Shown one piece after another: positions 2,011-64,000 of a DNA stretch of 64,000 bases. The first letter of the stretch is position 1, and each line of letters starts with the position of its first letter. Location: contig CM074518.1 of assembly GCA_037379345.1 (NCBI GenBank), positions 18,786,001 through 18,850,000 on the forward strand. The letters are read 5' to 3'. The translations under genes were made by a program, and so were the position numbers. The notes beneath the pieces were generated by a model that was not told where the DNA came from, ran no database searches, and was given only the letters and a program-made list of their open reading frames with translations. The DNA comes from Perna viridis. Its lineage: Eukaryota.

Positions 2011-5000
2011 TCGGCAAATTGGGCGGATAACAAGAGTGCCGTAACGAGATTATTACGGAAATTCGACGAAGCGAAGGAGGACCAAACATTTGACAGAGAA
2101 GATTTGTTAGTTGCTTATAAGAACCTGAAAGAGGACACAAAGTTTTTAGAAAAACTGAATATTGGAGATAACGGAAGCAGAAGACGTTGAAACAGAAATC
2201 GTCGACAAAGATGAATATTTTAACAATCTAGAAACTAAAGTTAGACATATTCAAAACTTTTTTGAATTGATGAAAACTCTACACCCCATTCAAACATCAC
2301 CCAATCTTCCATCGAAATTTTGAATGTTTAGAGCCCCCAGTTTGTCCCTTCTGCACATCCGACGAGTGAAGGTATAACTCACCATAACATGTACGACAAT
2401 CATCCGACGAGTGAAGGTACAACCTATCAGAACATGTACGCCCGTGATCCCAATGATCCACAATCGTCGTCTCAGAGATACATGTATTCCGCATCGGAAA
2501 CCAGTAGAAAAATGCCACATAGTACAATAAGTAATCACAGACTACCGAATTTATCTTCGCCTACTTTTAATGGAGGCATCTTAGACTGGCAGATGTTTTG
2601 GGACTCGTATGAGTCAGCAGTTCATTGCAACCAACGTTGAAAAGTTCAACTACTTGAAATCTCAGTTGCAAGGCGAAGCGCTGTATACGATTACAGCATT
2701 TTCACTTAAAAATGGCAATTACATGGAAGTCATCATTGTATTAAAGGAACGATATGGGCAACTACACAAAATAACAGACTCGTATTTAAAAGCACTGCTA
2801 GAATTCCCATCACCAATGAATACAGTTACAAGTCTACGATCATTTTATGCTAAGTACGAGGCATACATTAGAGGTTTACAATCACTACGTCAAGCCGAAG
2901 ATTCCTATGGAACACTGTTAGTGCCAATAATCATAAAGAAGTTACAATTTGAAGATCGTGGAAATTTTGCAACGGAACATAGTTCTACAAGTTGGAAGCT
3001 GAGTGAGTTAAGAAGATGTATTGAAAGAGATACACATCATGGAAGTTGGATGAGGATAACAATTGAATTTGACTGACACTCAATACACAACCACGTCTAA
3101 ATTTCACACAGGAGCTAAGTCACAACGAAACAACGCGAAGTTCCAACGAAGACACATTACAGAGAAACCGTGTGTATACTGTAAAAAATGCATGCACCAA
3201 CAAATTGTACCAAGGTATGTGATCCTAAAGTTATCCATAGTTAAGCGCAACAACCTCTGCTTTAACTGCTTAGGAAATCACCATGCCAATGATTGCAAAT
3301 CAAAAAGCACCTGCCGCCATTGTAGTAGAAGGCATAATTCCAATATATGTAATGGTACAAGAAACTCGTCGACAGTTGAGTCAAACACCAATGAAAACAT
3401 GAAAGACAAAAAAGTCACACTACTAACACTGTACCAGCATCAGTTAACGTAGTAAATGACAACGAGATTGTTGAGAAAGAAGATGACACTTCAATGCTTC
3501 ATACCGCACGGGAAAAAAAAATCCAATGTTCTCCTGAAAACTTCCGTCACGCAAGTTTGGTGTGAAACAAGATGCATAGATTCAAACCTACCTGTGTTCG
3601 GAAAAGATAACACAAATATTCAAGAGCCACGACAAGCTACCATTTACATTGAAACAGAGGCTAAACGGAAAATCCCGATTGACGTATTATACCATCGATA
3701 GCAGTTCCAAAATCACATTCGACAAGTCAATGGAAACATGGCATATTTGCGAGGGTTGCAACTGGCCCATCCAACAACTGAAGATGATACGTTCGAAATT
3801 TCAGTATTAATTGGAGCCGATTATTACTGGAACTTTGTAAAAGATGAAGTAATCAGAGGAAAGGGGCCGACTGCAGAGAAATCGAAGTTAGGCGATCTAC
3901 TCTTTGGACCAATACGACAAAAAAGATGAACTCAAACGATCCTAATTCATCGAACATACTAAACGTAGTAGTATCACACAAGACTGAAGAATTCGACCTA
4001 CAGAAATTTTGGAACCTTGAATCTCTTGGCATAGATACATCAGCAAAAGCGGAAAGAGAAAGTAGTTATTTACAAGAATGACATGAGTAATCCATTGAAT
4101 TTAGATAAAACCGCTATTACGCAAAATTACCATGGAAACAAGAATGTGACGAGTTGTCAACCAACTACAATGTAACTAGAAAGAGTACGGAAAATGTAAT
4201 AAGAAGGCTGCGTAAGGATCCAGATATGTTAAAGAAATACGGTGAAACTCTTCAAGAGCAAGAGCGCCGCGGATTTATCGAGAAATTAAGTGGAGAGACA
4301 AATTTGACAGAGAACAAAATACACTATATTTCGCATCATCCGGTATTCAAGAAAGACTCTAGTACAACCTCAATAAGAATACTGTACGACTGTATCTTAA
4401 AGATATCATCAGAGCATCTCAGTCTCAATGACTGCCTCATGACTACACCACCAATGCTTAATGACTTATCAAAAAGATTCAGATTAAATCGTTTCGCTAT
4501 CACCACTGATATTGAAAAAGTCGTATCAGAAACTATTACGATTCACATCATATGTTTTAAGGTTATTGACATTTTAAAACAGACAAAAAAGCATAAAATA
4601 AAGGCCAGTTGAAACCGAATAAGCTAAAATTCAGCTAAAATATGGATACGTGATACTCAAGCTATACACTTTTCACAGGACACTGATACCAAACACTGAG
4701 GAATAAAGGAAGATCGCGCAATTCATTACCGAGAATTCGGCAACTACGGCTATATCTCGACGACAGAAATCTTATTAGATGTGGCGGATGAATACATAAT
4801 TCACCGTTGCCAGACACAACTAAATATCCGTACATTCTTCCCTACAACCACACTTTGACGAAACTTATTGTTATAGACGCACTTGAAAGAACCTGCCATT
4901 CAGGAACAAACTATACAGTAACTCAAGTCCGACAAGTTTTGGATACCAGCACTTAGTCAGTTCGTAAAGAAAACACTTCAGAAGTGTGTAACTTGTAAAT

Positions 5001-8205: not shown

Positions 8206-11200
8206 TCAATGACAGCTACAGTTTTCTGTATACTCATTGCTTATATTCGATGAAGGTTGTTCAATCTCAACGAAAGTAACCGATTTCTCTGTTGTACAAA
8301 ACGATATCCGCTTTTTCACGTCATTGTTAATTGCACTGTTTTCTTCATTGTTTCCGCACTCCGATGTTTCTGTGCATTTTTTTGATGACACTATATTTTT
8401 CAGCACTTCAGCAAGAAGAATTATGAAGGCAAAACTTATACCAACTGCAAGTGAATAAAAACCAATCTGAATGTCCAGTAACGAAATAGTTTTTGCTGTG
8501 GTCATGGTACTATCGCCACATGATTCTGATTTCGGCCAGACTTGTGACATCCATAGTTCTATTAGTCCACTTTCTAAAACTGCAATGACCCTACAATATA
8601 GAAATGACATTATCTTGAAATCAACTACCTGTAAAATCATAACATTTTCTATGATGTCAAAAATAGGTTACTTTCACTTAGTACATCATTCATATATTCA
8701 TGCTTTTTACACCAATTGGTTGATTTGCTTAAATGTGAGTTTTCGTACCACGATAATGCATTTTTAGCTAAGTTCTACAAATTGTCAGTGCTTGTTTGAT
8801 TTGTTTTAGTCGGAAGATAAATAAATAGATACAGTTATATTACATTTTGAATACATGTAGGTTTGAATAATCTATATCAAATAAAACGATTTTGATAATT
8901 ATATTCCCAGTGCATGGATCATACGAGCAACTCAAAATGATAATTTCATAACAAAGACAAGAGATGTGTGCAGAAACTATTGACATTTTTTAGACAGTGT
9001 TACGAAAAGGCGATGTTGTTTTATGTTCCTTCACTACTATCTTAATGTAGAATTCTATATACCTGTCCGAAAAAACCTTAAGGAATGGAGAGTTCTCTGG
9101 CAGACCAATTGCATATGTAGAGAATATATCCGTATGAATAGTTTCTAGGTCACAACTTCTTGCTGCCGCAAATTCTAATGGAACATTATCCCAAATAAAA
9201 GCGTAATTTCCCTCTAAAGCTTTCCCAACTTGATGATTTATATTATCGTTCAAAACAGAGGTATCTGATTTGTTAAAATTTACAACACCTTGCCAAAATG
9301 CCTTTCTTTCTGGTACATCTGTGTTCTAAAAGTGATGAAAACGGAATTAGTAAGTGTATTCACAATGTAAGCGAGAAGAAAAAACACGACAGATGGTGGA
9401 TTTCTTATTACTCATTTGTGTGTAGAATTTCAAAGAATCCTTTTGTATAAGTTTTGATCTCTAATATAGTTACGGAATCTTTTTAATGGACTAAATTAAA
9501 CTTCACTTCCAAGTAATTTTAGCGGCAGTAGAAGAATTAAAATCTGCTGCTACTAGCTTTTGAAACAATTAGTTCGAATGTGAATATAAGATATAAAACT
9601 ATTGACATAAACAAAATGTACCTACAGAAAATATTGTCTCATAAAAAGATGCCCCTGCTGTACCCCATTTGTAAACATCTTGGGCAACCAGTCCTTCAAG
9701 GTCTTGGAAAGGCAGAGTTTCCTTGGTTATTGCCAGTGATGCAACAAAGTTGCCACTGTACGACGCCACTGTCACAATACAGAAGATCCACCAACAGCTG
9801 AGAAGTGTTCTACCTGAGGATGACTTAGCAATATGCTCACCACCTAGATTATAAAATATAAAACGTCTGCTTCAGAAGCATGTTTTGCATTTTATTACGT
9901 TAATAAGATTAGAAAAACACTATACAAACTTTGAATAGACTCAAATACAAAACGCACAAAGAGCTTTTACAGTTGTATTGACCTAAGCAGAAGCCATGGT
10001 ATACCGAAGTTGTTTGCTAATACAGACATAACCCTGATGGCTATATCGACCAGAGTATTTCTTAATGAAATAGCTTTTGAAGTTTTAAAATATAATTCAC
10101 GATGAAGCCTAACAAACACAATTATCGGATTTCTAAGCATTTCTTGTGAACATCATTTACCGTTTGATTGTTTAACCAATATTCATCAATAGTTTTGCCT
10201 GTCATTATGAATGACAGTAATTGAATTGATGAAGCCTCAGATAAATCTTTAATTTCCTAAGTTTAATAGACGCTATGAAATAAGCTATATATTTACTTTT
10301 ATGTGAGAAGGTAGGAGGCAAAGTGTTTTCTTTTCCTTTATATGAGTAGTTATAATTGCTATCTTTGGACGTAAAGATTTTAATTATTGAGCCCTCCCTT
10401 TTTGCATAAACAAGATACTTGTTCTTCACTGTTTCTAGGTAGAAAAAAGTGGGAATCATGAAAATAACAGTATCTCATAGTCTTATGGAAAGTAGAACCG
10501 GTTCACTTGTTCAATGGAGAAGAAATAGTGTCAAACAACTGCAGAATACTATTTTTTGAAGTCATATTTCAGGTTCGTTTTTGGAAACCAATACAAAATA
10601 TGAGATTCAGAAGAAGCAACACCATTTAGAAATGGATTTTCTTTATTATCAACAAGTAAACTCTGTAATTGCTTATCCCAACTGATGTAGGGGCCTGATT
10701 TGATGTTATAAATTGACATATTGTCGTTTCTAATAATCATACCATGAGTTAACAAAGAACCGTAGATATACCAGAAAGAATCTGAGAAGTGATGAAGACC
10801 GCGTATTTTTTCTCTTCTTATTTTCCTGTAGTACGGATTGTTTTTTTCAAATATAAACAGTAGAAATGAAATAACTGGTAATGAAATTCCTATGCACAAG
10901 AACACTGTCGGGCTGAAAGGATCCAGAAGTTTTCTCCATCTTCCACTTTGAGAATCAGGCTTTTTTATTATCATAGAAGAAACTTCGTAGTAATACGGAT
11001 GAGTGAAATCCATAACAGTTTCACGTTGTGATGAAACCGTGAGGGCTGTAGCCACTATATCTACTTCCTTTCGCTGCAGCTGACCAACCATACCATTCCA
11101 TACATTGTCAGAAATTTCCGCTCCCCAACTATTATCTGGAGGTCCAATCAATTGGTATCTACATTTTCATAAAACAATAAATAAATTGTTCAACGGATAT

Positions 11201-25380: not shown

Positions 25381-28300
25381 TCATATTGACAGGGCATCTA
25401 AAGCTTCTTCGGGTATACCTCGAACATTAGACCCATAGTGCATTTCTATAGTTGTGTGGGCTTGCTCTGGATTGTAAAGTGCAAAAACTGGCCATAAAGG
25501 CTCCGTATTTTCAGAACAAACCAAGTTTACAAAATTAGCAATGACCTGCCTCGATTGCAAGTCAATGATAATCCAATGTCTCCTAGATGTATCTAACAAG
25601 CAACCAAAATCAAGTCTTGAATATGACCGAATGGGTGATGGTATTCGATCAGCGAACGGCATGTGATTCAGCATTTGACCATTGTGCCAACCATGTAGGC
25701 ACACACGTCCGCAGAGGTGACACCCACCGCCACTGACCACCCATGCAAATTGACTTCTATCATTCCGGAATCCTGCATCAATAGCATCATAACGAGCAAG
25801 ACCGAATTCGAACAATACATTCCTCCGTATTAGTTTCAGAATCTTATATTTTACGGTTATTTCCCAATAAAAAAGTCCAGGTCTTCGGAAGGATCTTGTC
25901 CCTAACGTTCCTGGATATAAACGGAGTCGTCTTGTACTATGGTCTCCTGGAGAAGACCCATAAATTGATTTGATAGCTTTTAGACCTATTTCAAGACTAT
26001 CACGTGACACGTCAATTGAAGGATGAGATACAGCAGCATCGAATGCAATGTTTATGCCTGCAAAAAAAAACAATAATAAACTTGAAACTAAACAGGTCAA
26101 AGATATTAGGAGTAAAAACTATGTATGTCAAACCTTCAGTAGTGCCTGACATACTTTTTCCAAATTTTAATTTATATCTGGATTTATGTTAAACGGGACA
26201 AGGAATCGGTAGCCTTTTTTTCTAAATCCTCAATTAATCTTTCATAAAATGGCTCTTTTATAAGATTTCCTATTTTCTAAATTGTACAACGCTAATGCAT
26301 GGATGTAAATATCAAAAATAGAAAAAGAATATCATATTTGATTTCCATTCTAAACCATTGCATGAAGACCACATATACATATTTATATGTAATACCCACC
26401 TTTTGAATCCAGCGTTATTACCACTTTTATTGTAATGGAAAAACTAAGGCATAGTACGGGACATTATGTAGTTTCAAAAGAGTAGATAATCAGTGAAATG
26501 ATTTTATCGACATTCGAAATTGCATGTATACATCAAACATATATCAGCTATCCCGGTAATGTCATGATATGTAGCATACTTAATCTATGCCGTGCATTTA
26601 TTTAATCATTCCGAAGTTATGGTCATATGATGACAGACCAACGACAACACGAATGTTTAACGTAGATTGCAATTTCTCTCTTTTCACTGGTTTTATTCGT
26701 TTCCATGAAAAGGAGTTTTTACTCTTAATTTTTTAAACACGATAGAACACTCTTAACAACTAATGCACAATAGCTGTAATAGGATGTTTATTCTAACAGT
26801 CTTAAAGGACACACTACAATTTATGAATAGAAGTTATCGGTTTTGGATATGTCTAAACCGACACTGTCAGATAATAACTATATCATGACGAATAAAATGT
26901 TATTTATTTACAAGTTATTTGTCTTGGATAGATTGACACATTCAGGAAAAACACATTGATAAAGATTACCACAAAAATAAAATCGTTTCGAGGCAGATTT
27001 AAGATTAAAAGTGGGTAATGCGACAACTGACCTTGACCTTTGACCAATGATATTTGACATTAATAAATATTCAAAATCAATACGTATGTGCAATGTGTAT
27101 TCAAAATGTTTTAAGTGATATTCTGTAATAGTGCTAAGAAATGTGTTACGGAAAGAAAGATCAAAAGAACGCATGGTGGTGAAAATAACAGTTTTTCAAA
27201 CATGAGATAAAAAATGTTTCATCGAATATGGTGACTTTGTAGCATTGAAAACAATATGTTAAAATACGAAAAGTATATACTTAATACGTACAATTAACAT
27301 CATCGTAAAGAAGCCTTCTTTCTGTTATTGTGTGATGTTCTTTGCTCCTATAATCTGATTAACATAAACAAAAATTTATACGGTGTAATCATTTATTGTA
27401 TATGATTTAAAGAGCAGTTTCTTGGTCATAAAATTGAAAAAATCTGAGGATATTCCGAACTTTTTGATGATGTAATATCATGTTATTTTGATTTTTGGTT
27501 CTTGTTTCGTGTAAGAGGACTTCAGTTTATTAAACAATTAGTTTATTTTCCCATTCAATTAAATTGATGATATGTTAATATTTACAGATTATTAAACATT
27601 TCCTCAAATTTTTACTTCGTTATAATGATAGTGAAGTAAATGCCTGGTCATAGGAATTATCAACAACAGAATTTATCAACACTTCCTATCACAACAGTGT
27701 ACGAGATTCACACAAAACTATATATGAAACAGAAAACAAAACAGAAACAGAAACAGATATGCATCATTTTCAGCAACAAAAACAATCCAAAGTATCAAAA
27801 CTAAAGGAAAATTTAAAAACAACAAAGTCCTTAGAAATGGTCAAAACATGAAAACGGAAACAAAGATGGTTCACATAAACAATGTAGCACACAGAATAAA
27901 ATACCATTTTACAAAAAGGTTGATAATAAAAAAGGACAGCACAATCATTCTGTTCATCTTAAATAGCGGTCTTTGTTAGAATCATGCAATTTATGTAATA
28001 TTTGATACACCACTAAAAAGTCTACATATTTTTATTTTTGTTATTAAGTTGCTTTATAGGTCTATATGAAATGTATAATTATTCATTTCAATATGTTTGC
28101 TCTTAGGAAATAATTGTATTTTAGTGTCATTTACAGAGTTGTCTCCCTTAATTTTGATTTCTACAGTACATTCTGTATAATTGTCACCTAAAAACAAGGG
28201 TTATCTAAAAAGTAATATGTTAATTTCGTTTTTCTATAACATTTAAAACAAATATCAAATTTTGCAAGATTGTTATCTGGAGTGATACTAAGTGATATTT

Positions 28301-31300
28301 TATAAAACAAAATATTACGGAAACGAGAGTATTATATTTGATTTACACTTCAAAAGTAAACCCCTTTCATTGATATGTCAATAATCAAAACATTAGAATG
28401 AAACTGTGCCCTATGATCCTACAAAAAGTTGTCATTACGACCAAAACTATATGCTTCATCACTCTATCTAAAAAGGAAAGGTCCATAAAAGTCTCCAGGT
28501 CACGTACATCAGTCGTTTAAGAAATGTTATACGCCTTCAAAAGAACTGATTTGTATCGCCATCCAGAAACATGTTTCACAATCATGAAAATGCTCATATT
28601 TAAACATTTACATACCGGTTGAAACAACTTGAGATCTTGCAGGCGGGATGGGTACATCTTGCTGCACTGATTCATCTGTATAAATGGCAACCATTAAAAG
28701 ACAAAAACATATTTACAAAACATGCTTATTAGGTGTAAATGATTGTTTCACATGAATTCTCTATAGGCTTTACGAAATTTGTCAATAAATGGAATCCAAA
28801 ATAATCTATTAAAGATATAACATTCTGTTACAAAAATAAAAGTTAAAGCTCCTCTGTGACATCAAGAGAAAATGAAACATATATTACTAATTAGCTCAAA
28901 CAATTCAATCAGTGTCACATGATATCTTCTTAATATAGCTACAATGTTTTTCAAATACAAATTCTAAGTTCAAAATGGTTAATTGATTTTTTTTCTCCTG
29001 AAGGCATAGAATGTGGAAGACTTTATGAAAACGGTGTGATAATTAATTCAAGTACGGTGTAAATGTACTTTACTCAATCCTAAAGCATGAGTAGAATATA
29101 TTTGTGTAAATATGGGTAATTCGATTAGCATACAGAAACTTTCTATTTGATTAACATGATGTATTATTTTCAGATTGTTTGAATGAATGTTTTATTCTTT
29201 CATTCTACAGTGGACTAACTTTAGTATTTTTTTAATTGTTTCAGATGAAAAGTTAAAAAGGATACGTTAGCATGAAGTAATATCAGATTTCTCAATATAA
29301 TGACGTCGCGTTAAATATTCCACGCCACTTTTTAACTTCTTTTGAAAACAAAAACAAAACACGTATTATGTCTACCTCCCTTACCTACGTTTAAGTCTTG
29401 ATCAAGCATTTCTATCGTTTTATCGTGCATGCGCTAAATCCATGTACGACATTATTGAAATATGTTGAAGTGATAAAATAAGATTCATTTAACCTTTTAT
29501 TCCATTCACCATTTTCATTACACCAAATTGTCGATAGTTTCACACCATTGAGCGTTTTACTAAAAACTGTACTCCTTCGAAGAAAATTGTTATCGCCTAT
29601 ACACCTTTCATTATTCCAATAAACATTAAAGCAAATCATATAATTCTCTATCAGTCCACATAAACACACCCTAACAATTGTACTAATTTGCTTTCGAAAG
29701 TGAAAACTTATTCTTTGAGGTAAACTTAACTCCTCTAGATCAATAGGGTTTCACTTACCTAAAACGCTCAGTCGAGATGGTGGCTTTGTAAAAGCATACC
29801 CTATGAAAAATTGTACGTACTGTATTTCAACTATACAACATATAGATATTGTCAAAATTAATTTTTCTGTACTCATAAAAATGTCCAATAGTTTATTTCC
29901 CTGTAAATGGTAATTCAAAACACATATCATCGAACTTTAACACTTATTTTTTTCTATATTAGAAACGCGATTACTTTCAGTTTTGTTAACGGTCCCACAA
30001 AGTGACAATTATAATCTAATATTTTCAAAGGCTTTGGTATTTTAGACCGGTATACCATAGCTGAAATAAGAGAACAGAAGCTTGGTATTTATGGTTTACC
30101 AGAATGAAAGACTGAAACAACTTCAGAGAACAGGGAATAAAAGTATATGTTCCTTGTTAAGTGTGTGTCTGTTTTCCCGGGCTACTCCTTATCTTGTCTT
30201 TTGATTTCCTCTTGAATATCGGTTCCCTTTATTTGTCTTTGTATTTTGACTCCTATTTCAACATTACTTCATGACTCCATTATATCAACAAAAGATGACA
30301 ATTTAGTGATACCGTTAATCATTTTTCAATGCATGAACTTCTAAATTTTGAAATTTCTATTTAAATATAATTTACCTCTTGATGTTCTGGACACGTCTCT
30401 ATATAATATATCATCTATAGATTAAAGAAAATTACGTAGGATTTGCCTTTTAATTATTTTAATGTATTTTGTCCAACAAATTCGAAAATTATAACATTGA
30501 TATGGCCCAAAATGTTCTTATTTGGACTCAATAAAAATCTATTGTATATTGAGAAGACGTTTATTGGATTTTGAGTAATAAATGTAAAATGTCCGGTTTT
30601 ATTTAACAATATTGCGCATGCGGGAGTAAATTCAATAGAATGTCATATCGTTTAATATTGTTACTGGATATTATAGACATGGCTTGGAGGAAGAAAATTT
30701 ACCGCAGTACATGTAAAATATTTCAAAGTTGTCGGACCTGATTTGCTTTTAAAAGATGTTTTGCAGATACAACAATATATTTATGAGGATAAAATAACAA
30801 CTACTTTGCAAATATATTGGTGAATGCCTTTTCGTAAAAATAACAATTTTAGTGACAATTTTATGATATTTCAAATTCTTGATACTACGGGTGTTTGCTA
30901 GCAAAATTAAAAAAAAAAAAAGCTATTTTTAGTGAGTGTGTTATACATTAACTTTTACTCATGTCGAATTCAACATTGACTCCAACATTGGTTTTTGAAC
31001 TAAATACCCAAAGAGAAACCATTACCTTACCTGACTTGGCTGATCTAGATGACATTAAACTTAACATCCTTGGGGAATTCATTGTACTCAGTTGTCCTGT
31101 AGGAAAATACAACAAAAATAAATCTAAGATGTAAATGATTGTTTAGCTATTGGTTCGGGGTTTTTATTTATTTCTGTATCAGTGTTATACTTTTGTTTGT
31201 TATGTGTTTAATTTCAATTACTGTCATAATTTTCATTACACTGTTTTTATTTTTTTTAAATAGCTATCATTTTAAAAATCATGATTATTGTCCATTTCCC

Positions 31301-34300
31301 TAACGTTCTGTATATCGCTCACCGACCTGTTGTCATTCTAGACAGGCTTCTTGATGGCAAATTTCCTGAAACATTAAATGATGAAATGTAAACAGAAAAA
31401 AATCTACATGAAAAATGAACCTTAAAATCATTGCCGTTACATGGTAACTACCTTATTATGTGAACACATGAATAATAATAAAGTAAAAAGTATTTCACTG
31501 GTAAATGGAACTAAATACAAATAAAATGCAAACAATACGTGATATAATAAAGAAAGAAGGTATATATAAACACTCGAACATTGACTATATTGTCTTGTTT
31601 TAATACCAATTGTAGAGACGCCATATCGTCTGGAAAGTTCTTAATATTAAACAAATCTTTATAAAAGTCTACAGGTTTACTTTTACATTTAAACGTAAGA
31701 GTACCATGAAACACTAAACCATTAATTTTGATTTACTTGAGTAAAGTCGTTATTTCATAATACTAGTTTGAAGAAAAATAATCTGTATTATTGAAAAATT
31801 TAATACTGTAGTACGCTAATAATCATACCATTACAATTGAGTTGATAAAATGAAATTGAAAAGATACAATTAAAGCAATTATTTAAATAAAATCTCGGGG
31901 GGAAAAGATGGCTATTAACAAACTTTCAGAATGCTAAACAGAAATTAATAGGTACAACACAATGAATGATTACTCTTCACAAAAGCTTTTACTTAGTCAC
32001 ATTTTTGTGCAAGACCTGTTCACAAGTTAACATTATTCTAGCAAAAAAAATCAATAAATTTTATTCCTTTCTTCTGCAATGGATTGCCCAAAACTGTAAT
32101 AATTATTTAAATACAAACATAACGTCATGATCATTTCCAGACGCATTTCGGGTTGTTTGGATGACAAAAATATATGAATATAGATCATGTATCTTATTTA
32201 CTGATATATTTACCTGACAAAAGTGGCGGTGAAGTCTTAAATGAATGTTTTCCTGCATTAAAAAGAAGGGAGAAAATGAGAAAAAATGAAATAAAATAGA
32301 TGCTTTGACACAGTGTGTCGGGAATCCTGATCTTGCACCTAGGCTCTTGTCGGGTTTTGCTCACTTGCATTGCAATGGGTGCCGCTTGCGAAGCAGGACA
32401 TGCTTACCTTTCCGGAGCACTAAATATCACTTACGATTTTATTTTATTTTATTTTATTTTTTTATTTTTTTTTTTTTTTTGGGGGGGGGGGGGTTAGCTC
32501 ATTATGCTTTTGTTTTAGTTTTTGTGCGATGTCTTGTATCCCAGTCTTTAGTTTTTATAAATGTTATTGCATTTAATTCTGTTTGCTTCATTGTGTGTGG
32601 AGATCGACTCTGTTTTCATGTCAAGGCCATTATTAGTCCTTCAGTATCTTTTCAGATATTTATACACGAATTATTAGAAAGAGATCAAATTCTTACAGTA
32701 AACTTAAGAAAACAACAGCATTAAGACTACACATGATAAATATCTTCAATAAAATTTGAATTGCATGTTTGAACATGACACATAAGTCATCTTGATCATG
32801 TTTGTGTCTACAAACTATTTATGTATATGTACATTTTTGGATTTTCATAAAATATTACAGCTAAGGTAATCACTTAAACATACTTACGTTTATTGTAAGA
32901 GTACTGTCCGAGGGCATTAAACTTATACCCCGCTGTGTTTATACATTCCCCGTTTACCAGTATATGCGCAACGTATTTACCAGGCTTTTGAGCTTCGAAT
33001 AAGACTTTGTACGTTCCATCTTTGTCAGTGTAATCTTCGGCATGTGGTCTTATGATATCATTATCAGGGTCTAATATCTCAACAGATATGTCTGCAGTGG
33101 CTGTAAATATGCTTAATTACTTTTGTTACTTTGTATGTATTAATTTGGTTATGTTATGTTCTTTGTTGTGATTTTCTGTTTTCCATGTCTGATCTTTGTC
33201 CCTAGATTACATTCTTTTGATTTTCGCTAGAATCTTGATTCCCTTGATTATTCATTCAATGAATGAATATTTTGAATGAAATAATAGTTCTTCTCATGTC
33301 TTAGAAATACCATTACCTAGTTAATAGATAAATGATGTTTTTCTCTATGTATTTAATCATGCTTAAACTATGAGTAAGGTCTTGTAGAGTAAACATAACG
33401 AAATTATGTGCAAAATCCTTCATTTGTTATCACTTAACAATTTAAGTAGTAGTCTTTGTAAGAATCATGCAAATTCTGTAATATATGTGATACACCCCAA
33501 AAAGGCCATGTATGTTTATTTTGTAGCTAATTAGTTGCTTTATAGGTCTATATAATCAAATGTATAATTATTAATTCCAATCTGTCTGCTCTTAGGAGTT
33601 AATTCTCATTGTACATTCAAAAGTTTCTATTGTATTGTAGTGTCGTTTACAGACTCATCGCTCTTAATGTTGAATTCTACAGTACATTCTATACATTCTA
33701 TAAAGCACGGATTATATGAAAAGACACATATTAATTTCTGTTAGCTATTGCATTTTAAACAAAACATAAAATGTGAAAATATGTAGGCTTTCCAACCATG
33801 AATCACATTTTGCATGATTTTTACCTAGAGTACTACTTAAAACGCTTTTGCCATTGCATTGAAAAATCGGTGTATCATTCAGCAGTTTTGCGCATATATA
33901 TTAATATATACTAGCAGTTGGACTTGCCATAATAAACTGGATTACGATCTTTACTGAACAATCGTATAATTAGTTGGTCTTACCATCATATACAGGAATG
34001 AGATCTTTACTGAACAATCGTATAGTTAAAACTACTTTCTCCTCATCCACTGCTGTATCACTAGGAACTACGACTGTATTTGATATGCAAATTTTTGACG
34101 ACCCAGAAACTCTGTGAGCTGTTGGTACGTATACTTTTGGAGGTTGAAACGTTTGTGAAGATTCCTGTGATTGTTTATCCATACTTGGTGGTACAGATAG
34201 TCTTTCGCTTGATATGCTCAGTTGTCGAACATATGACTAAAATATTAAGTTATCAAAATAATGAAACAGTGTAACAATTACTGCTTGTTCAAAGTAAGTG

Positions 34301-34612
34301 GTGATGAAGATCAGAATGTACAACTGTTATTGTTAATATGTGATTATCATTTCCTTGTTAGTTTACTAATTTTAATATCATGCAAAACAAATTATAAGAT
34401 TACAGTTTTAACAATATATGATGACGTGCAATTGTTGGTATTTCTGATACATTTTCATTTAAATGTTAACTGATGCTTTTGTAACATTTGATTTTTTTTC
34501 ATATCCTTACCTTATACATACAGTCAGACTTTTATCCTTACCTTATACATACAGTCAGACTTTTATCCTTACCTTATACATACAGTCAGACTTTTATCCT
34601 TACCTTATACAT
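25381..34612 (-). CDS. TRIM-derived filamin + B30.2/SPRY-like protein lacking RING/B-box/coiled coil (gene A), ~487 aa
   Basis: Exons (minus): putative MYK 34612-34604; 34236-33984; filamin exon 33100-32888 (ISVEILDPDNDIIRPHAEDYTDKDGTYKVLFEAQKPGKYVAHILVNGECIN); micro-exons 32252-32214, 31365-31327, 31096-31031, 30414-30376, 29800-29759, 29411-29385, 28675-28616; SPRY-like exon 26057-25381 (FDAAVSHPSIDVSRD..GLFYWEITV..FGCLLD..PLWPVFALYN). The chain is open. The alternative start is ATG 34182. The filamin and SPRY exons are clearly homologous to genes B and C. Confidence 0.8.
27964..28290 (+). repeat. Interspersed repeat, copy 1 (copy 2 at 33447-33837)
   Basis: Shared blocks GTCTTTGT.AGAATCATGCAA, GTTGCTTTATAGGTCTATAT, GCTCTTAGGA, TTCTACAGTACATTCT in the same order and orientation. 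Confidence 0.75.
32345..32600 (+). mobile_element. PLE-associated 3' UTR fragment (related subfamily)
   Basis: GAAGCAGGACATGCTTACCTTTCCGGAGCAC is a variant of the GAAAACCAGAGGACGATTACCCTATCGGTGCAC core at 961-993. Confidence 0.5.
33118..33254 (+). mobile_element. PLE 3' UTR fragment
   Basis: CTGTTTTCCATGTCTGATCTTTGTCCCTAGATTACATTCTTTTGATT..CCCTTGATTA matches the consensus. Confidence 0.75.
33447..33837 (+). repeat. Interspersed repeat, copy 2 (copy 1 at 27964-28290)
   Basis: Same shared sequence blocks as copy 1. Confidence 0.75.
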
Positions 34613-34627
34613 ACAGTCAGACTTTTA
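34502..34627. repeat. Perfect 31-bp tandem repeat x4 (TATCCTTACCTTATACATACAGTCAGACTTT)
   Basis: Four identical units starting at 34502, 34533, 34564 and 34595. Confidence 0.97.
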
Positions 34628-36287: not shown

Positions 36288-39200
36288 ATGTCAACAGCGA
36301 CGTACCACCCGGTGATGACACAACCTCTCCGTGTACCAAGCAAGTCCTCGATTCGTCCACAGATTGAGCACGTACGGCAAAAATTTTTAGAATGTTACGT
36401 TTGCAACGAAGAATTTGATGACGTTGAACATATTCCAAGAGTTCTTCCATGTCTTCATTGCGTATGTGAAGGATGTCTCGAGACAATGAAAACACGTGAC
36501 TCTGTCGTCTGCCCAGAGTGTAACGAATCACACACCATTCCTAATGGTAACATAAAAACCTTCCACAAGGACGGATGTCGGGGATATCTAACAAAATATC
36601 TAAAGGTGCAGACAGATGAAGCAGCTATTGCATGTGATGAATGCACCAATAAAAGACGCGGAACGCATCGCTGTAAAGAATGCTCCCAATTTCTTTGTAA
36701 CGATTGTACAGATGCACACTTGAAGACAAAAGTTACAAAGAAGCACGAGATTACCAATGTAAACGACCTCAAAGAATGCACGATTGAAGAATTTCAGTCC
36801 GTCCAACAATGTACAGTAAAAGGTCATGAAGGCCAGGGCTTTACGTATTACTGTGTTTCTAATTCCTGTGATAAGCCTGTGTGTGCCCTTTGTGCAGTTG
36901 AGTTTCACCCTGATTCCAAAAATCACAAATTACGAACACTGACAGACGTTTATGCAGAAACCAAAAGAACTATTGATAGTCTGGTATCGGAAGTGAAGCA
37001 CAAACAGTTAACGGCAGACAGCGCGATAAATAACGTTGATGATATTATAACAAATCTAGACAGTGTTAAAGAAAGATTGACTGAAGATATCGATATGGCT
37101 TTCGAAAAATGTCAGAAAATGCTCGATGAGAGGAAAGAAGAAGTGATGAATGAGCTGTTAACCGCTGTCAGTATGAAGAAAAAACGACTTCAAGATCAAC
37201 TGAGTACTTTAAACTTCCATAAAGGAAACCTTGATGATTCCAATGAATTTGCAATTTGTTCTTATACATATGCATCACCTACAGAATTCATGAATGTTAA
37301 ACATCAAATTATTGATCGATTGCAAGACCTGAATTCCCGCCAACTTGATACGATTCCACATGATAATGCTGATGTACAGGTGACGCTATCATTGCTCATG
37401 CTAAAACAAAATAGAAAATAGCATTGCAACATTATGCAATTATAGCAATTGAGCTGGAACGATCTTTATTAGAAAAGGATTACACGTACTTTGATCATTG
37501 CGTTGATTACGATACAAAAGATGCAATTTACTTTTGCATTTTAGCTTAAATTGTACGTCTAAAGGCCCAAACAAACAGAAATGACACAAAAAATCATGTT
37601 TATATAAAACGTACAAATAAAATTACCAAGTGAATTTACACTTGTAGTTAGATCATTGACATAGAGTAAGTAATAAACGAATTTTGCAACCATTTAATAC
37701 ACTAACAAGTATTTCTCTCTCTTTCATTGCAGTTCAATAAGAAAAACATGAATGAAGACTTCAAGCTCTTTACGGAAAGAGTCGGAAAAATATCGACGTC
37801 CTCTCCACATTCGTTGAACGCCAGTGTGACTGTGAATGACATACCGGTGGATGTTGAAGACGTTCCCATTACTATCCATGTAAACGGTGTCGAGAACGCT
37901 GCTTCAGCAGAAGGTTTTAAGTGATATTATATTTGTTAAGAGTAGTATATTCGTATACCTAACTAAATAACATTAAACTTTCATTCAACCATTTCCAACA
38001 ATCATTTAGTTACGTTAAAAAATAATACGATCAAGATCATGCTTTTAACGGCTTGGATATCAAGTAATATTTACCTGCCACCTGTTACTTTTCGTAAATT
38101 TACTTACAGAATTGCGATGATTTTCAATTATGCTGTACATTTACACGACTTAATTTTGCAGGTAGCGTTGATATGAAAGTAGAAATCAGAGATCCAGATG
38201 GAAGAATACACCGACCAACAGTGGAAGACTTTACCAAGAAACAAGGTTGCTACAAAGTCTACTTCTTAACTTCAAAGCTTGGAAGACACAAGGCTACTAT
38301 ATTGGTAAATGGTGAAAGTATCAATGCAGAGGGGTATAAATTTCACGTTTTACCACATGGAACCGGTAGACAGTCGGCTACTCACAGTAAGTTTTATTAG
38401 AAGCTCTTTGTCAAACATCTTGTTCCTATTGTTATGATACATTCATATAACACATTTTCAATTCACTTAGTCATTTGACTATGGTTTAGGTTTGCCGTAG
38501 CTTTTTGTTTGACAAATTTTGAGAATGAATAATTAGCATACATATCGTCAAACAATAGAAATCCGCAAACAAACCACAGCCTAGAACAATAAGACAAAGT
38601 GGTCATACACAACACAAACGTATTTTTAGAAAGTACATACAGAAACGACTGTCTATGAAAAATGTGAGCCGTTTATTTTATTTTTATTTTTTTTATAACA
38701 CTTCGGAACATCTTAGTGTCGTGTGAAGAATTGTCAGCATAGGTAAACATTAACATGTAGCCAATCACCATCTAGAAAAAAAATTGGTAAATGGCCGCTA
38801 TTAAAGAAAAACGAACTAGTTTTATTTCCAAACTTTTGTACATACATCATTGCTATTTTCAAATATACGAAAATTTTCTCTACGTTGACGGGGAAAATTA
38901 CTACATTAATTTTATTAATTGCTATGAAATTATTCCTGTATAAATAAGAAACCAAGTGAGTGTATGCATGATGTTTCATATCACTTATTCTACCAGGAAT
39001 TCCAGGATTAATACCTATATTGCTTTTAAGGGCCAACACGAGTTCATTCGCCACCTAATGTGACACACGGGATTGCAATATCTCCGACTAATTCAGGTAG
39101 AATAAATAATATATTTACATAATTACAATCAAGGTAAAAACAATTGAGGTTTTACATGCCACTGTATCAATCATATAATGGAAAATGTTCTTCTAATCCT

Positions 39201-40606
39201 ACCATTGAAATTCAATTTTAAAACTGATGTTTTGATAAAAACACCAGACAAATTCTATATATATTGCGATGCATTACTGATTGGAATATATGAATACCAT
39301 ATGCACACTGTGCTTAGATATTAGCCTGAATTAAAATATAAGCAATTTGCGTTGACCAATAATAACATTTCAATCCTTTGGTTTAAACATCATTTTCTTA
39401 TAAATGATTCACGGCTAGGTTTTACCAAAGAAATACAAACAAAATATTAGATATACGTGCATTGTAGATGTAACAATCGTTGGACGAATAACTCCGAGAG
39501 ATATTATGCATGGTGATGTCAACTGTAAGTAAACTCCATTGTGTTGAAATGTTCCTCTTCCTGTATGAGAGTTTGGTACTTATTATTATGTCATTCCATA
39601 AGTGCACAACGTTATCAAGGCTAATTTGTAAAGACGATTTTAAACTTTTATAGTTGTTGTCATATTTATTTGCAACTATGTTATTTTTAAAGAAAATAGT
39701 TCTTTCAAAATCGATTGTGTGAACAGTTTTAAAAATGATATACAAAAATGAAGCGTGGATAAAAGTAATATTGATTATTATGTGGGCAAGAGCTATATAA
39801 CATTTGAATATTTTGTATTGGGACAGCATCATACATAATAATTTTGAATTACAAATCTAGATTCAAAATTGCATTTCTAAAAAAAGTAAACATATCTGCA
39901 GATATTTTGAATTTCAATAGGTGTTGACATGTCATTTGATGCGTCTATTGCGCATGCCAGTGTCGACATATCTCCGGATGGCAAGCTTATGAAGATGAGA
40001 CCCCTGCGTCAACGCAACGATTTAAGATTCCGGGAATCAGAGGCCAGAGGTCGAAGGTTAAAGAACTACAAAGGAACGATTGCTACGAAGTCGTTTAACA
40101 AGGCCGGTCTGATATACTGGGAATGTGTGGTTCAGTACAAAGTTCTGCGTCTTATACGTCAGACCATGCTATTTGAAATGGGCTTGGCCAGACATGAGTA
40201 TGTTGACAAACACTACACTGTTGATGGATATCCCTACGCATGGGCAATAAGTGCCAGGGGATGTCATATTTGCGGCAAAGTCTGTCTACAAACATGGCAC
40301 AATGGTCAGCTAATGACCCATAACCCACTGTCCAATCGCACTGTGACGCCACCAAATATTGTCGTAAGACTTCATTACGGATTCCTCCTAGATGCAACTA
40401 AACGCCATTGGATAATTGTAGATCTGAAAACAAAGAAGGTCATTTTTCACTTTAAGAATTTGGTTATGTCAGAAATGTCCGACCCTCTGTTCCCTGTATT
40501 TGCCATTTACAATCCAGAACAGGTACAGGTTTCTATGGAACTACTCTCTGGTATGAACATAGCCAGTGTGCCCGAGGAAGCATTGGACGCTTTGGTTCTA
40601 ACATAA
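36288..40606 (+). CDS. TRIM E3 ubiquitin ligase-like protein: RING-Bbox1-Bbox2-coiled coil-filamin-B30.2/SPRY-like (gene B), ~768 aa
   Basis: Exons 36288-37379, 37733-37913, 38162-38386, 39031-39096, 39468-39524, 39921-40606 (2307 nt, phases consistent). C3HC4 RING CYVC..PCLHCVCEGC..CPEC; B-box1 CDEC..CKEC..LCNDCTDAH; B-box2 CTVKGH..C..CDKPVCALC..H..H; helical coiled coil; filamin VEIRDPDG..YKVYFLTSKLGRHKATILVNG; SPRY-like FDASIAH..GLIYWECVV..YGFLLD..PLFPVF. Confidence 0.9.
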
Positions 40607-45698: not shown

Positions 45699-48600
45699 AT
45701 GAGTACGGCAACTTACCATTCTGTAATGACAGAAACTGTCGGAGCACTGAGTCAGACTTCGGTAAACCAGCAAACAGAACCTCTCCGAGCTGAAAGCCAG
45801 GCTTCAGCTAACCAACAAACGGAACCTGTCCGAGAACGAAAGCCGCAGACAGAAACTTTGCGGATATCAAGTAAGACATCGATCAACCAGCAACATGATC
45901 TGGTCCAACAAAAGTTTTTAGAATGTTACGTCTGTAAAGAAAACTTTGACGACTATGACCATATTCCGCGAATTCTTCCATGTCTTCACTGCGTTTGTGA
46001 AGAATGTCTCGAGAAAATAAAAACGCAAGATTCTGTCGATTGTCAAGAGTGCAATGAATCACACTCTATACCAAATGGTAACATAAATTTTTTTCAAAAA
46101 GACGGCTGTCGGGAACATCTCATCAAGTATCTTAATGTTCAGACCGACGATTCAGCAATTACATGTGACGAATGTACTAAAAGAAAAAAAGGAACTCATC
46201 GTTGTAAAGAGTGCTCCCAGTTTCTCTGTAAAGACTGTACAGATGCACACAGGAGGACAAAGGTTACCAAGAAGCACGAAATCACCACTGTTAAAGATCT
46301 AAAAGAATGCGCTGTTGAGGAATTTTTGTCCGTGCAATGCTGTACAGTAGCAGGACACGAAGATCACGCATACGCATACTATTGTATCTCCGACTCGTGT
46401 AACAAGCCAGTTTGCCCTCTCTGTGCTGTAGAATTTCACCCCGAATCTAAAAATCACAAGTTACAGAAACTTACAGATGCTTATACTGAAACTAAAAGAA
46501 ATGTTGATTATCTAGTGTCGCAACTAAAACATAAACAATTAACAGCAGACGATACACTAACAATCGTCGAGAATATCATATCGAAACTTGACATTGTACA
46601 GGAGAAGTTGACTGAAGATATTGATATCGCCTTCGACAGATGCCAAAAGAAGATAGACAAACGTAGAGAAGAAATCAAGAATGAATTGCTAGATGTCATT
46701 AGTATGAAGAAGAAGCGACTTCAGGATCAAATGAATGTTTTGAACGTCCTTAAAAGAAATCTGGAAGATTCAAGCGAATATGTTGCTTGTTCGTCTACTT
46801 ATGCATCACCTTCAGAGTTCATGAATCTTAAGGACCAAATTATTGAGAGATTGGAGGACCTTAATTATCAACAGGTTGATACAAATCCACATGACAATGC
46901 TGATGTGGAGGTAACAAGAGTTTAAACAATACATACTGAATATTACATGCAAAAATGACCAGTATCATATGCCAACTCGTCCTGAGACTCCTCATATCAC
47001 CCCAATTGCCACCGACCAGAGTGATGATATAGATCGAGAATTGATTTAGCATGTGATACAGATTTTGCCTTGTTCATTATATCAACTATTTCAACTATAC
47101 TTCAATTGTGTTCCGAGAAAGAGTGCCATATAGAGTATGCTATATTGGTATAAGGGTGTGATATAGGATATGCTATATAGTTATAAGGGTGTGATTAAGG
47201 GTAAAAATATAGGGTTTAAACAAGGATCGCTTCTCATGCATATACAAAAAAACTGTTATATATGATATCGGTTGAAAATATAGGTTTGCAGAAATTTGAA
47301 CTCATAAAATTTCGAAAAAATACTCGAAGGAAGAAATAATTTATTTTTATTTTATCTTGGAGATTTAATATTCAAATTATATTTCTGTCACCCACTAATA
47401 TTGGAATCGAGTTTTAACACATAAACTATGCAGATAAGTAAGAGCATGTATAATACAAGATATAAATATAAATGACTAAAATAATTGAATTTGAACTCCG
47501 TATTTTATTCGTCAAAACTTTCCATTCTTTGTTTCACTCAAGCTAGATATATCTCATTTCAGCTGCAACGAAACAACATGGACGAAGACTTCGAACATTT
47601 TTCGGATAATATTGGAAAGATTCGGGCGTCATCACCAAATGTTCCAACCAATCTAGAGAATGTTCCAATGGCTATTCATCTTTATAATATTGAGAACGGT
47701 CAAAAAGAAGGTATTCAAGCCCTATGATTAGCTTCACTTAAACCTTTAACTGTGTTACTTATATGAAGGAGAACAATATTATTCATTCATTTTATTGCTC
47801 TAATTTACACTTAATTAAGTACATGAGTGTGTTTATTAAATTAGCATTTTGATAGATCTTAACAGAAACCCAACGGAAACTTTGTTTGAACATATTTTAT
47901 TGTTCATCCATCCTTGTTTATGAACAATAAAATATGTTTAAACTAACACACACACAGTCAACACTTAAAGACTATATATTTTACAGGTGACACTGGCATT
48001 CAAGTAGAAATACAAGATCAAGACGGAAAGGTGCACCGTCCAGCAGTTGAGGCCTACGACAACAAACAGGAGTGTTATAAAACCTACTTCAAGTCTCCAA
48101 ACCTAGGGGGTCAGAAGGCCACTATCTTGGTCAATAGTGAAAGCATAAATGCAGAGGGATATCGATTCGACGTTAAATCGCGCGGTAGCAGTAAACATTC
48201 GGTTATTTATAGTAGGTATCCTCCACATGACGCCTTTCTTTGGTTTTGTACTTTCTACAGTGTCCGTCATAGTTATTGTATTTGATAAGATCCAAGACTC
48301 GGTTCGAGACTTAGTATTAAGGACAATATGTTTACATACATCAGTGCTAAGAAACTGTTTATATGAGCTAATTCATTAATTAAGTTGTACTTTGGGAAAA
48401 GAAATTCTATCTGCATTAGATGTACAAAAAACCCTGCTTTTTGAGTGTAATTAAATGGCCATAAAAGATTCAAGGGCTTGTTGTTAAGATGTCACTTCTT
48501 ACAAAGACTCATCGAACACTTCAACAGTGGAGAAGTACATGTGTTGTCCTTAGAAAACATCAAGAACTTGTGTTATTGGTCAACCTGATTCCATACATGT

Positions 48601-50201
48601 ATTTCATTACATTTTTCAAAAGAATCGTATAATTCAGTTGAAAATAATGCCATTTCTAAAACCCTAGTATTAAATCAAGCGCTTAGTGTGTTGTGCTTCT
48701 GTACCTATCGTCAGAGCGATGGTGCCATCATTGCATAGAAAACTATACCTTGAATTCGTTTTTTTTCGAAAATGAGATATATGTATTCAACCAGAATGGT
48801 AGCTGCTATCACGGCGGTCTCTGTAACGCTAATTCGACACTATGTGTTATACCTTTAATGATTTATAAGATTGTGTTTGATACAATTTCTTGTAGATGTA
48901 ACAATTGCCGGAACACAAGCTCCAAGGGACATCACGCATGGCGATGTTAACTGTAAGTTCACATTGTCTTACACAATGTATGTGGTTTTATTTTTGGCGC
49001 GCCCATTCATATATAATGTGGGTTCACATGGGCATTGTAGGAAAGTTAAACATGTTTGAGTCCTTGGTACAGTCATTGTTCCAGGGAAAGGGTTCTGGGG
49101 ATTGGACCACTACTCCTTGTTGAGAAAAAAAGTTTGCTTAAAATCAGGGCAAAAATTGGCAAACAATAAGCTGGAACCCTGGTAGTTCAACCTAGATTTC
49201 TTGTAATGATTCAAACATATGATAAAAGATTATGACATTGCATTGTTCCATATCAGTCCTTGTATCAACTCCCCGCCCATATCAACTCTCGAGCAGATTT
49301 CTTTCGGCTTGACATGCATTGAAGTATCGTGTTGATACACGGGGAGATAAGGAAAATCAATAATTTAATCTATAAATATCAACTGATTTCAGTTCAAATC
49401 GCATGCGTTCTATATGTTATCGCATGGGCTTTGGCCAAAAAAGCATGACATGAACAGTGTCACAAAATTATCTAGTCAGTTGTTTTAACCGCCATCTTCC
49501 TATGCCTCTTTACAGGTGTCGACATTTCATTTGATGCTTCTATTGCGCATGCCTTTATAGAGATATCTCCGGATGGTAAAATGATGAAGATGAAGCCCAA
49601 TCGCCAAGGCAATGATTTTAGCGTCCGGGAACTGGACCCTAGAGTCCGAACATTCAAGAACTACAAAGGAACAATTGCTACAAAGTCGTTTAACAAGACT
49701 GGACTAATCTACTGGGAAGCAGTAGTTCAGTACAGAATTTTGTCGTTTATTCGCCAGACAATGTTATTTGAAATGGGGTTGGCTAGGTTTGAGTATATCG
49801 ACAAACATCATACTGTAGATAGATACCCTTACGCGTGGGCAATAAGTGCCAGAGGCTGTGATAATTGTGGAAAAGTTTGTCTTCAGACATGGCATAATAG
49901 TCAACTTATGACCCATTACCCACTTTCAAAACGCATTGCAACTTCTCCAAGTTCAGTAGTCCGACAGCATTTTGGATTCCTTCTAGATACGACAAAACGC
50001 CATTGGATAATCGTAGATTTGAAGACAAAGAAGGTCATTTTTCATTTTAAGAATTTGGTGATGTCCGATATGGCCGACCCTCTGTATCCTGTCTTTGCGA
50101 TTTACAATCCAGAGCTAGTGCAGGTTTCTATAAATTTACTCTCTGGCATGAACATAGTCAGCGTTCCTCAGGAAGCCTTAGATGCATTAGTTACTACATG
50201 A
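45699..50201 (+). CDS. TRIM E3 ubiquitin ligase-like protein, tandem paralogue of gene B (gene C), ~775 aa
   Basis: Exons 45699-46910, 47563-47710, 47987-48211, 48896-48952, 49516-50201 (2328 nt, phases consistent). Intact RING and two B-boxes. The filamin (225 nt), micro-exon (57 nt) and SPRY (686 nt) exons have the same lengths as in gene B. Confidence 0.9.
47889..47938. repeat. Perfect inverted repeat, 19-bp arms, 12-nt loop, in intron 2 of gene C
   Basis: AACATATTTTATTGTTCAT-CCATCCTTGTTT-ATGAACAATAAAATATGTT. Confidence 0.95.
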
Positions 50202-61395: not shown

Positions 61396-62454
<1,059 letters not shown>

Positions 62455-64000
62455 TGAAGGTTATTAAATACACTGTATCAGATAATACAAAAATGGAAAT
62501 GTAGGCACTGGTTTATATTGTAAGAAACTTGCTGAAATATGAAATGTTCAACTGAACATCAGAGATAAAAAAAGACACATTTTAGAAATAATGAATTTCA
62601 ACTTGTAAGCTCATTTGTGTGAAGCACTGAGATCAGCAGGAGAAAATGTGAACTAAAAGTAAAGATACTATGGAAATACATGTAATAACTTTTTCAACTA
62701 AATGTTCTTAAGACTTGTTCCTGTACACTGTACACATAGTGCCAAGGAATTACAGTCAATGTAAACAGAAGAGCATGACTTCAATGTTTTTTTTTAAGGA
62801 AAAATTTCTCATTAACTGCTTTTTAAAAGAAACAAAAATCAAAGATCCATTGTCATTAAAAGTGAACTTTTCTTATAATTTTGTATATTAGCATTTATTT
62901 AAAGACTTGCTTGACATTGTTTAGGCATTTTATAAACTGAAGCACATTTGTACAGTGTACAGTAAAATGTCACAATTTTTCATATACAGTACATGTAATA
63001 ATGTTTCACTCTAGCATGATATTTGGATCATTTTTTTATTTTTATTTTTTTTTGGGTGGGTGGGTGGGGGGGGGCACCAGAAATCTAACATTTTGAGAAA
63101 TTTGTCCCTAGACTGTTAAGGCAAGTTTTTTTACTTCAGTCATCCATTTGATATTTTCCATTTATATGACATACATGTAAATTACTACCCTGAAACTATA
63201 GTGCACATCCACGTATTTCTTGTAATGTGAACTTTTTTCTTAAAAGGTTCATTTTCTTGAAAGCAAAGTCAAACAGTCTACAAAATGCATTGGATACATG
63301 TATTTTTTTTTTTTCAACGCAGTCGGTATAGTTCCACTTTTTACCCTTTGACTTTAAAGACGCTCTTCCATAGAAACGCACATCACCTGATAAAAATTTG
63401 GTTTCCTGATTGGCGAAATACTGAAAACTTAGTGGCATTGGGGAAAAAACTGTATCAGAAGTTGAAATTGCCTGCCATGTCTTATTTCCTGAAGAAAATT
63501 ATGGGTAAAAAGAACAGATTTTGCTGCGATGAATATCTTTTTTTAAAGATAGTACTTGTTATTTCCTTCCATGGTTTTTCGTTTTTAAAATAGGATAGAC
63601 CATTAGCTTTTTTGTGCATGCTATTCCAGAAATTTACACTAGTGTACATGTACATGGATTTGCTTTGTCTCCTCTTGTCTTGTTTATATTACATGCAATT
63701 TATTTAAATGCATAGTGAATAGTGCCAGAGCTGTCATAAATATTATGTCTTGAAGCCAGTATTAAGCTTTGTCAATTTGCCTTTGTGTGCAATATTAACT
63801 ATGCCTTTCAGGTTCTGAACACTGAATAATTAAAATTGAATGTGCATATTGTTATATAGGGGAGGCAAGTTGTTATGGTACAAATGTATGTTTTCCAATT
63901 TAAAAACAAATAATTTTACTGGTCTATAAAATCATTCATTCTTCATGTCAACAGATGAATTTAAATTAATAAAGAATTGATTATTTTCAAGGGCCATTTA

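Follow-up and report, generated by a model that had tools for sequence, protein, structure and literature searches.

Short symmetric exons of a predicted disordered linker in a TRIM-derived filamin and PRY-SPRY gene of Perna viridis

Locus layout and linker exons of gene A

The window analyzed here is a 64-kb stretch (64,000 nucleotides) of the Perna viridis genome (GenBank assembly GCA_037379345.1, contig CM074518.1, positions 18,786,001 to 18,850,000), and it contained three related genes, A on the minus strand and B and C on the plus strand (Table 1). Gene A encodes a filamin domain and a C-terminal domain of predicted PRY-SPRY fold, and the linker of short exons between them is the subject of this study. 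The window was AT-rich (28-39% GC), its proteins were most similar to those of Mytilus (71% identity for the last exon of gene A), and spliced models of A, B and C all kept open frames. A first-pass annotation had described seven micro-exons in this linker, any subset of which could be skipped in frame, giving up to 128 forms of a tether that would position the SPRY domain. The observation was largely real, with six of the seven exons conserved and one further exon missed, and the interpretation was overstated: the linker is mostly ordinary and modestly spliced, not a 128-form tuning device.

The orthologs of gene A used for comparison fell into three protein clusters of 13, 13 and 3 members. 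The exon matrix was built from the 11 records that extended across the linker; the remaining 18, all fragments of 86-240 aa, were excluded.

Table 1. Genes and exons of the A, B and C locus, in window coordinates; record counts refer to the 11 linker-spanning orthologs of gene A
Feature	Position	Strand	Length and phase	Remarks
Gene A	~34.6 to 25.4 kb	-		Filamin + PRY-SPRY, two-domain
Gene A, probable end of exon 1	34502..34627	-		Perfect 31-nt tandem unit, 4.1 copies
Gene A exon 2	33984..34236	-	253 nt, phase 0-1	N-terminal stretch and first half of filamin domain
Gene A filamin exon	32888..33100	-	213 nt, phase 1-1	Pfam Filamin, E=8e-6
E1	32214..32252	-	39 nt, phase 1-1	8/13 identical; 10/11 records, constant
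E2	31327..31365	-	39 nt, phase 1-1	10/13 identical in Mytilus; 10/11 records, constant
E3	31031..31096	-	66 nt, phase 1-1	16/22 identical in Mytilus; 11/11 records, constant
E4	30376..30414	-	39 nt, phase 1-1	8/11 records; optional in relatives
E5	29759..29800	-	42 nt, phase 1-1	10/11 records; optional in one lineage
E6 candidate	29385..29411	-	27 nt	0/11 records
E7	28616..28675	-	60 nt, phase 1-1	8-11 identities in Mytilus; 11/11 records, constant, faster evolving
E8	27292..27354	-	63 nt, phase 1-1	11/11 records; absent from first-pass annotation
Gene A last exon	25381..26057	-		PRY-SPRY (B30.2)-fold domain, by Foldseek on ortholog model
Gene B	36288..40606	+		Intact RING-B-box-coiled-coil-filamin-SPRY paralog, 768 aa model, head-to-head with A
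Gene B linker exon	39031..39096	+	66 nt, phase 1-1	19-aa equivalent in Mytilus B
Gene B last linker exon	39468..39524	+	57 nt, phase 1-1	E8 homolog
Gene C	45699..50201	+		Tandem paralog of B, 775 aa model
Gene C single linker exon	48896-48952	+	57 nt

All seven peptides listed for gene A were recovered on the minus strand as stop-free, phase 1-1 segments between AG and GT, and the linker exons proposed for gene B (66 and 57 nt) and gene C (57 nt) also fitted open models. The list of seven was incomplete. When all AG-GT candidates between the filamin and SPRY exons were aligned to the linker of the Mytilus edulis ortholog, E1-E5 and E7 were recovered and an additional phase 1-1 exon, E8, was revealed, while E6 fell outside the 26 best rows. 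E8 was homologous to the 57-nt exon of gene B (protein p=0.0005) and of gene C, and is read as an ancestral exon; its last residues open the first PRY-SPRY strand (249-251 in the ortholog model). The filamin exon and E1-E8 were all phase 1-1, forming a run of the kind defined by at least three successive symmetric exons, and if phase 1 is assumed to make up 0.25-0.35 of introns, six internal introns would all be phase 1 with a chance of 2e-4 to 2e-3. All of the exons were short, but under the 36-bp limit given in the available text of PMC8293314 only E6 would count as a micro-exon, the others measuring 39-66 nt.

The matrix used to score splice sites was trained on 20 acceptors and 19 donors from within the window, with 54,829 control bases as the null. 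No null candidate scored as well as E1, E2 or E3; 2 did so for E7, 3 for E4 (score 14.0), 19 for E5, 45 for E8 and 110 for E6. The acceptor of E5 (2.5) was the weakest among the conserved exons, most of which had ordinary pyrimidine-rich acceptors, and a TGC standing apart from the acceptor itself was seen at E6 and E7 only. A matrix this small cannot alone reject an exon, as E8 was real though its score lay within chance.

E6 was the one listed exon for which no counterpart appeared: the shuffle test matched it in none of the 11 ortholog records (p 0.18-0.32), it was absent from 11/11 by anchor, and the Mytilus orthologs spliced E5 straight onto E7. Its acceptor scored -3.4, with 38% pyrimidines upstream and another AG 22 nt upstream, and 13.7 candidates of its grade were expected by chance in the 6.8-kb linker region. 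Ortholog DNA was also sought in metagenome contigs, where two scans gave 93 and 78 pattern matches with 0 confirmed. Because it was missing from every ortholog record and had a poor acceptor, E6 is probably a chance AG-GT stretch, or at most a rare lineage-specific microexon. Its score counts less clearly against it, since its donor was strong (8.2), only 4 null candidates matched both of its sub-scores, and E8 scored no better than chance.

It is unlikely, although compatible with the explanation proposed below, that E6 is a real, lineage-specific and neuron-restricted microexon of the eMIC type that whole-animal annotations missed. Its length, strong donor, weak acceptor and upstream TGC (at 18 nt) would fit that type, as the accessible part of PMC8797185 described eMIC-dependent fly exons with UGC motifs and with 3' splice sites that are very weak. 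The same source text attributed longer pyrimidine tracts and long AG exclusion zones to these exons, whereas E6 had no pyrimidine tract and an AG close upstream, and its absence from the orthologs and the roughly 14 equally good chance candidates argue further against it.

Exon use and conservation among relatives

The records from relatives indicated limited skipping. Among the 10 that included the filamin exon, 7 had the full exon set, 2 were without E4 and 1 was without E4 and E5, yielding three nested sets. In-frame skipping was thus supported for E4, and for E4 with E5, but not on the scale of 128 combinations; nor was free skipping of every exon supported, as E3, E7 and E8 were present in every record. 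The clearest case was that of Mytilus trossulus, in which isoform X1 minus the 13 aa of E4 equalled isoform X2 with 0 differences. RefSeq isoforms rest on RNA evidence. The other two records that lacked E4 were Logan open reading frames (ORFs) (3/11 in all), P0162 with E5 and P0164 without it; over 438 aa the two differed at 4 further positions. Contigs of 1,340, 1,682 and 1,928 nt are too short to contain the introns, so the Logan ORFs on them must be spliced; the third, on the 1,928-nt contig, carried all of E1-E5, E7 and E8. Isoform X1 of Mytilus galloprovincialis had 3 extra residues at the E7/E8 joint, and an older prediction from that species, P0005, without the filamin exon, E1 and E2, was read as a gene-model error.

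These same records bear on whether the real linker exons might all be constitutive in P. viridis, with one working length, and the shorter forms in relatives low-level noise or lineage-specific exon loss. The predominance of the full set would agree with this, as would the single listed protein sequence in each of M. edulis and M. californianus, the good splice sites of E4 in the window, and the conservation of E4 and E5, which equalled that of the constant exons. However, the form skipping E4 is recorded as an isoform of its own in M. trossulus, and a second lineage also lacked E4; of two near-twin Logan ORFs only one had E5, the conserved exon with the weakest acceptor. We regard a wholly constitutive linker as a minority possibility, and favor a mostly constant linker with an optional central block.

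Exon number and length were largely shared with Mytilus. The comparison among species proposed by the first-pass annotation bore out E1-E5 and E7, together with E8, as present in Mytilus orthologs, but found E6 in none of the 11 records. Counterparts of E1-E5, E7 and E8 in Mytilus had 13, 13, 22, 13, 14, 19-20 and 21 residues, the same as in the window. In the shuffle test, E1-E5 matched the linker in 6/6 full-set Mytilus records and a Logan record (p 0.001-0.002 for E1-E4), and E7 gave p 0.001-0.063 over the Mytilus-type records. In six Mytilus-type records, E1-E5 kept their lengths (E4 being absent in one) with 62-77% identity, compared to 71-73% for the SPRY exon; identity was lower for E7 and E8. 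Such conservation of length and SPRY-level identity would be unexpected for a passive spacer, and for that reason points to motif function in the linker, as judged from the sequence, over a passive tether.

The linker was predicted to be disordered: in the M. edulis ortholog, the predicted local distance difference test score (pLDDT) stayed below 50 from residue 137 to residue 247 (~110 residues). Its 115 residues included 21 S, 9 T, 12 R, 5 K and 9 P, and SR/RS dipeptides occurred 10 times where 4.4 were expected (p=0.004). An RS-repeat domain was ruled out, the longest run being one dipeptide. The description of a Ser/Arg-rich tether of variable length held for composition and predicted disorder, but a purely length-tuning role was unsupported, given the unchanged lengths of E1-E5 and their SPRY-level identity. 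The S-P-R tripeptide of E3 was kept across all orthologs, and fits proline-directed kinases; the linker may be phosphorylated.

An origin of the array by exon duplication was unsupported. Among 28 exon pairs in gene A, the best similarities were p=0.0035 for DNA and p=0.012 for protein, and none of the pairs (0/28) survived correction for 56 tests, for which the threshold is ~0.0009. The first-pass annotation had coupled such duplication with independent cassettes, in which up to 128 linkers would tune SPRY reach and phosphorylation, and we find this combination very improbable. All exons are frame-neutral and some skipping exists, three of the exons are 39 nt, E2 and E4 showed the weak DNA likeness of p=0.0035 (uncorrected), and one distant M. 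edulis member of the family bears the label isoform X14, indicating that the domain family can be richly spliced. On the other side, only three nested sets were recorded, E6 lacked support, E3, E7 and E8 were never missing, E8 begins the folded domain, and no pair was significantly similar. In this distant family member, P0055 (1258 aa), SPRY-like sequence occurs in two stretches and the low-complexity linkers are long; it is a better candidate than gene A for rich linker splicing.

Domain architecture and origin of gene A

Gene A probably starts within a 31-nt repeat, as predicted from the genomic sequence. Each repeat unit had an ATG followed by two more codons (together M-Y-K), as well as a strong donor; the ATG furthest 5' was at 34612, and Mytilus orthologs of A start with M-Y-R. 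Joining an exon 1 unit to exon 2 gave an open frame of 499 aa without E6. If a downstream donor were used, the upstream ATGs would meet stops after 5-8 codons and could act as short upstream ORFs. Exon 2 had an internal Met at 34182 and showed 34-38 identities over 52-65 aligned residues with its orthologs, and in the filamin exon 62/71 residues were identical to Mytilus. A close relative of exon 2 in Logan, P0109, had a ~20-residue internal duplication in the N-terminal stretch preceding the filamin domain. By inspection, the N-terminus of gene A was polar and charged, and its domains were of cytosolic types.

The AlphaFold model of the M. edulis ortholog, based on a 64-sequence alignment, had confident filamin and C-terminal domains with disorder between them. 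In Foldseek, the C-terminal domain matched PRY-SPRY domains from TRIM65, TRIM25 and butyrophilin (E 3.6e-10 to 9e-9, probability 1.00), at 14-19% identity and a template modelling (TM) score by target of ~0.7 for single-domain targets. The Atlas agreed with this fold, with SPRY clusters at 0.93. The C-terminal SPRY domain reported earlier was thereby supported at the level of fold, though Pfam missed it: the last exons of A, B and C matched 0 Pfam families at E<=0.1, and a PDB sequence search for the SPRY domain gave nothing below E=2.2. On the structural prediction, the SPRY domain of gene A is a divergent PRY-SPRY member, recognized by fold and not by sequence. A segment G-C-H-x-C-G-x-x-C-x-x-x-W-H-N-G was invariant in 17 aligned SPRY-fold domains (25381-26057, 39921-40606 and 49516-50201 in the window) and is possibly a metal site atypical of vertebrate PRY-SPRY domains.

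Genes B and C had RING and B-box Pfam matches, several at or slightly below the curated cut-offs, and a coiled coil judged from position and alignment only, so that both carried the tripartite motif. Their orthologs are labelled TRIM45-, TRIM71- or TRIM2/3-like in databases. Aligned orthologs of gene A (438-544 aa) had no RING, B-box or coiled-coil region, Pfam returned only Filamin for ortholog P0001, and no tblastn match of the tripartite exon of B or C was found on A's side (E<=1). Judged by its predicted protein, gene A is TRIM-derived and is not a TRIM, a point that the first-pass description of the linker did not make. The linker exons of genes B and C looked constant, with 764 aa in 6/6 named Mytilus B records and one Logan record. 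Gene C was 79% identical to B in SPRY, grouped with B apart from the Mytilus B rows, had a longer N-terminus, and lacked the 66-nt linker exon; a B-like 66-nt exon sought in both linker introns of C gave best scores of 17 and 24, with nothing convincing.

In a tree of 21 SPRY domains, gene A and its orthologs formed a clade of 7 rows (100/100), and A with the mytilid B/C genes formed a clade of 12 rows (98/97), apart from the oyster, Solemya and heterodont rows; the stem of A was long (0.57). Gene A probably arose as a mytilid-specific inverted duplicate of the B/C ancestor, a bivalve TRIM with RING, B-box, coiled-coil, filamin and PRY-SPRY regions. Loss of the large tripartite exon would have left a filamin and PRY-SPRY protein without a ligase module, and the linker, which in C and B has one or two exons (19-41 codons), would have expanded to seven (116 codons) as short exons were acquired within an ancestral intron of phase 1. 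Because only phase 1-1 exons with lengths that are multiples of 3 would be tolerated there, the uniform symmetry is probably a by-product of gain and is no proof of skipping. E1-E3, E7 and E8 behave as constant, with an optional central block (E4, sometimes E4 and E5) that would give a few isoforms 13-27 residues shorter, each without basic, Ser/Thr-bearing motifs. The product would most likely act in the cytosol as an adaptor or decoy and be co-regulated with gene B, its head-to-head neighbor. We consider it likely that gene A is such a tripartite-less duplicate, whose product serves as adaptor or decoy and has a disordered linker that is largely constant, carries motifs and includes an optional central block.

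Several points weigh against this likely reading. All evidence of skipping came from relatives ~70% identical, and skipping in P. viridis itself would follow by analogy; the three exon sets are a floor, as protein records undercount isoforms. A search of sequencing runs listed 24 rows, 20 of them covering part of this stretch and 0 on record as RNA; this outcome is not counted as evidence. E4 was missing from both Logan records of one lineage and may be lost there, not skipped, and P0162 and P0164, given their 4 other residue differences, may represent alleles or sister species instead of isoforms. P0005 lacked the filamin exon, E1 and E2, and the model error read into it is putative. Finally, old duplications of 13-residue exons could have diverged past detection.

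The start codons of A (34612, minus strand) and B (36288, plus strand) were ~1.7 kb apart in head-to-head orientation, and the adjacency appeared to be kept in six Mytilus assemblies, as indicated by consecutive record accessions and equal-sized contigs. A promoter common to A and B is possible. A more far-reaching account, which seems to us improbable, would make A a mussel-specific, ligase-less regulator of its divergently transcribed TRIM parent B that shares its promoter and competes through PRY-SPRY for targets. It would be switched as conserved exons with Ser/Arg motifs (E4, E5, perhaps a neural E6) are included depending on tissue or challenge, and would have more forms than databases record.

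Relation to known systems and neighboring features

The linker of gene A is an instance of a known pattern, in which successive symmetric exons encode disorder, although without the duplication signature. Schad, Kalmar and Tompa (2013, PMC3632108), in the text available, described such exons with cassette splicing and stressed internal tandem duplication. Similar to those runs, gene A had at least three same-phase exons that lie between ordered domains and encode predicted disorder, and some of them were alternatively included in relatives; unlike those runs, its exons had no detectable mutual homology and showed domain-level identity between genera. In Schistosoma micro-exon genes (MEGs), as presented in the accessible portion of PMC8293314, exons of <=36 bp make up most of the gene, signal peptides are present and evolution is fast. 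Gene A shared with them an array of short symmetric exons droppable in frame, but its real exons (39-66 nt) made up about a quarter of the coding length, were conserved and gave few forms. Only 1/8 of its linker exons was <=36 nt, the doubtful E6, and the SPRY-level protein identity of E1-E5 argues against MEG-like fast evolution. Neural microexons dependent on eMIC/SRRM4, as far as covered in PMC8797185, are likewise short and frame-preserving, with E6 in their size range, whereas the conserved exons of gene A were longer and mostly had ordinary pyrimidine-rich acceptors.

To our knowledge, filamin and PRY-SPRY together are not a vertebrate TRIM class. Genes B and C resembled known TRIMs (subgroup VII, TRIM45-like, and TRIM25, TRIM65 and TRIM21) in carrying RING, B-boxes, a coiled-coil region and filamin, and A, B and C all end in a PRY-SPRY fold; subgroup VII itself combines filamin with NHL, according to the available text of PMC9427271. 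Human RING-less TRIMs lack the RING alone, while gene A lacks the whole tripartite motif. No published account of a bivalve filamin and PRY-SPRY TRIM family or a ligase-less mytilid offshoot was found in the open literature searched, although bivalve TRIM surveys with gene tables may exist; both appear undescribed in that literature. The splicing aspect is ordinary, as animals commonly have symmetric disorder-coding exons of which a few act as cassettes. A tidy case of exon gain is provided by the three paralogs of this window, in which the linker would have passed from one to two to seven exons alongside ligase loss.

Elsewhere in the window, exons at 8206-11166 (minus strand) resembled those of a glutamate-type ionotropic receptor gene on visual inspection of the ORF translations, and a large exon at 61396-62457 (plus strand) contained a protein kinase start, HIPK-like by eye. 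Broken ORFs at 2300-4612 (plus strand) looked like the gag-pol of a Bel/Pao-type retrotransposon, also by eye. Within the introns of gene A, two ~330-nt stretches (27959-28252 and 33442-33763) were 72% identical in the same orientation, and another dispersed repeat had several copies, at 0.8-1.2, 7.4-7.8, 24.3-24.8, 33.1-33.3 and 35.1 kb.

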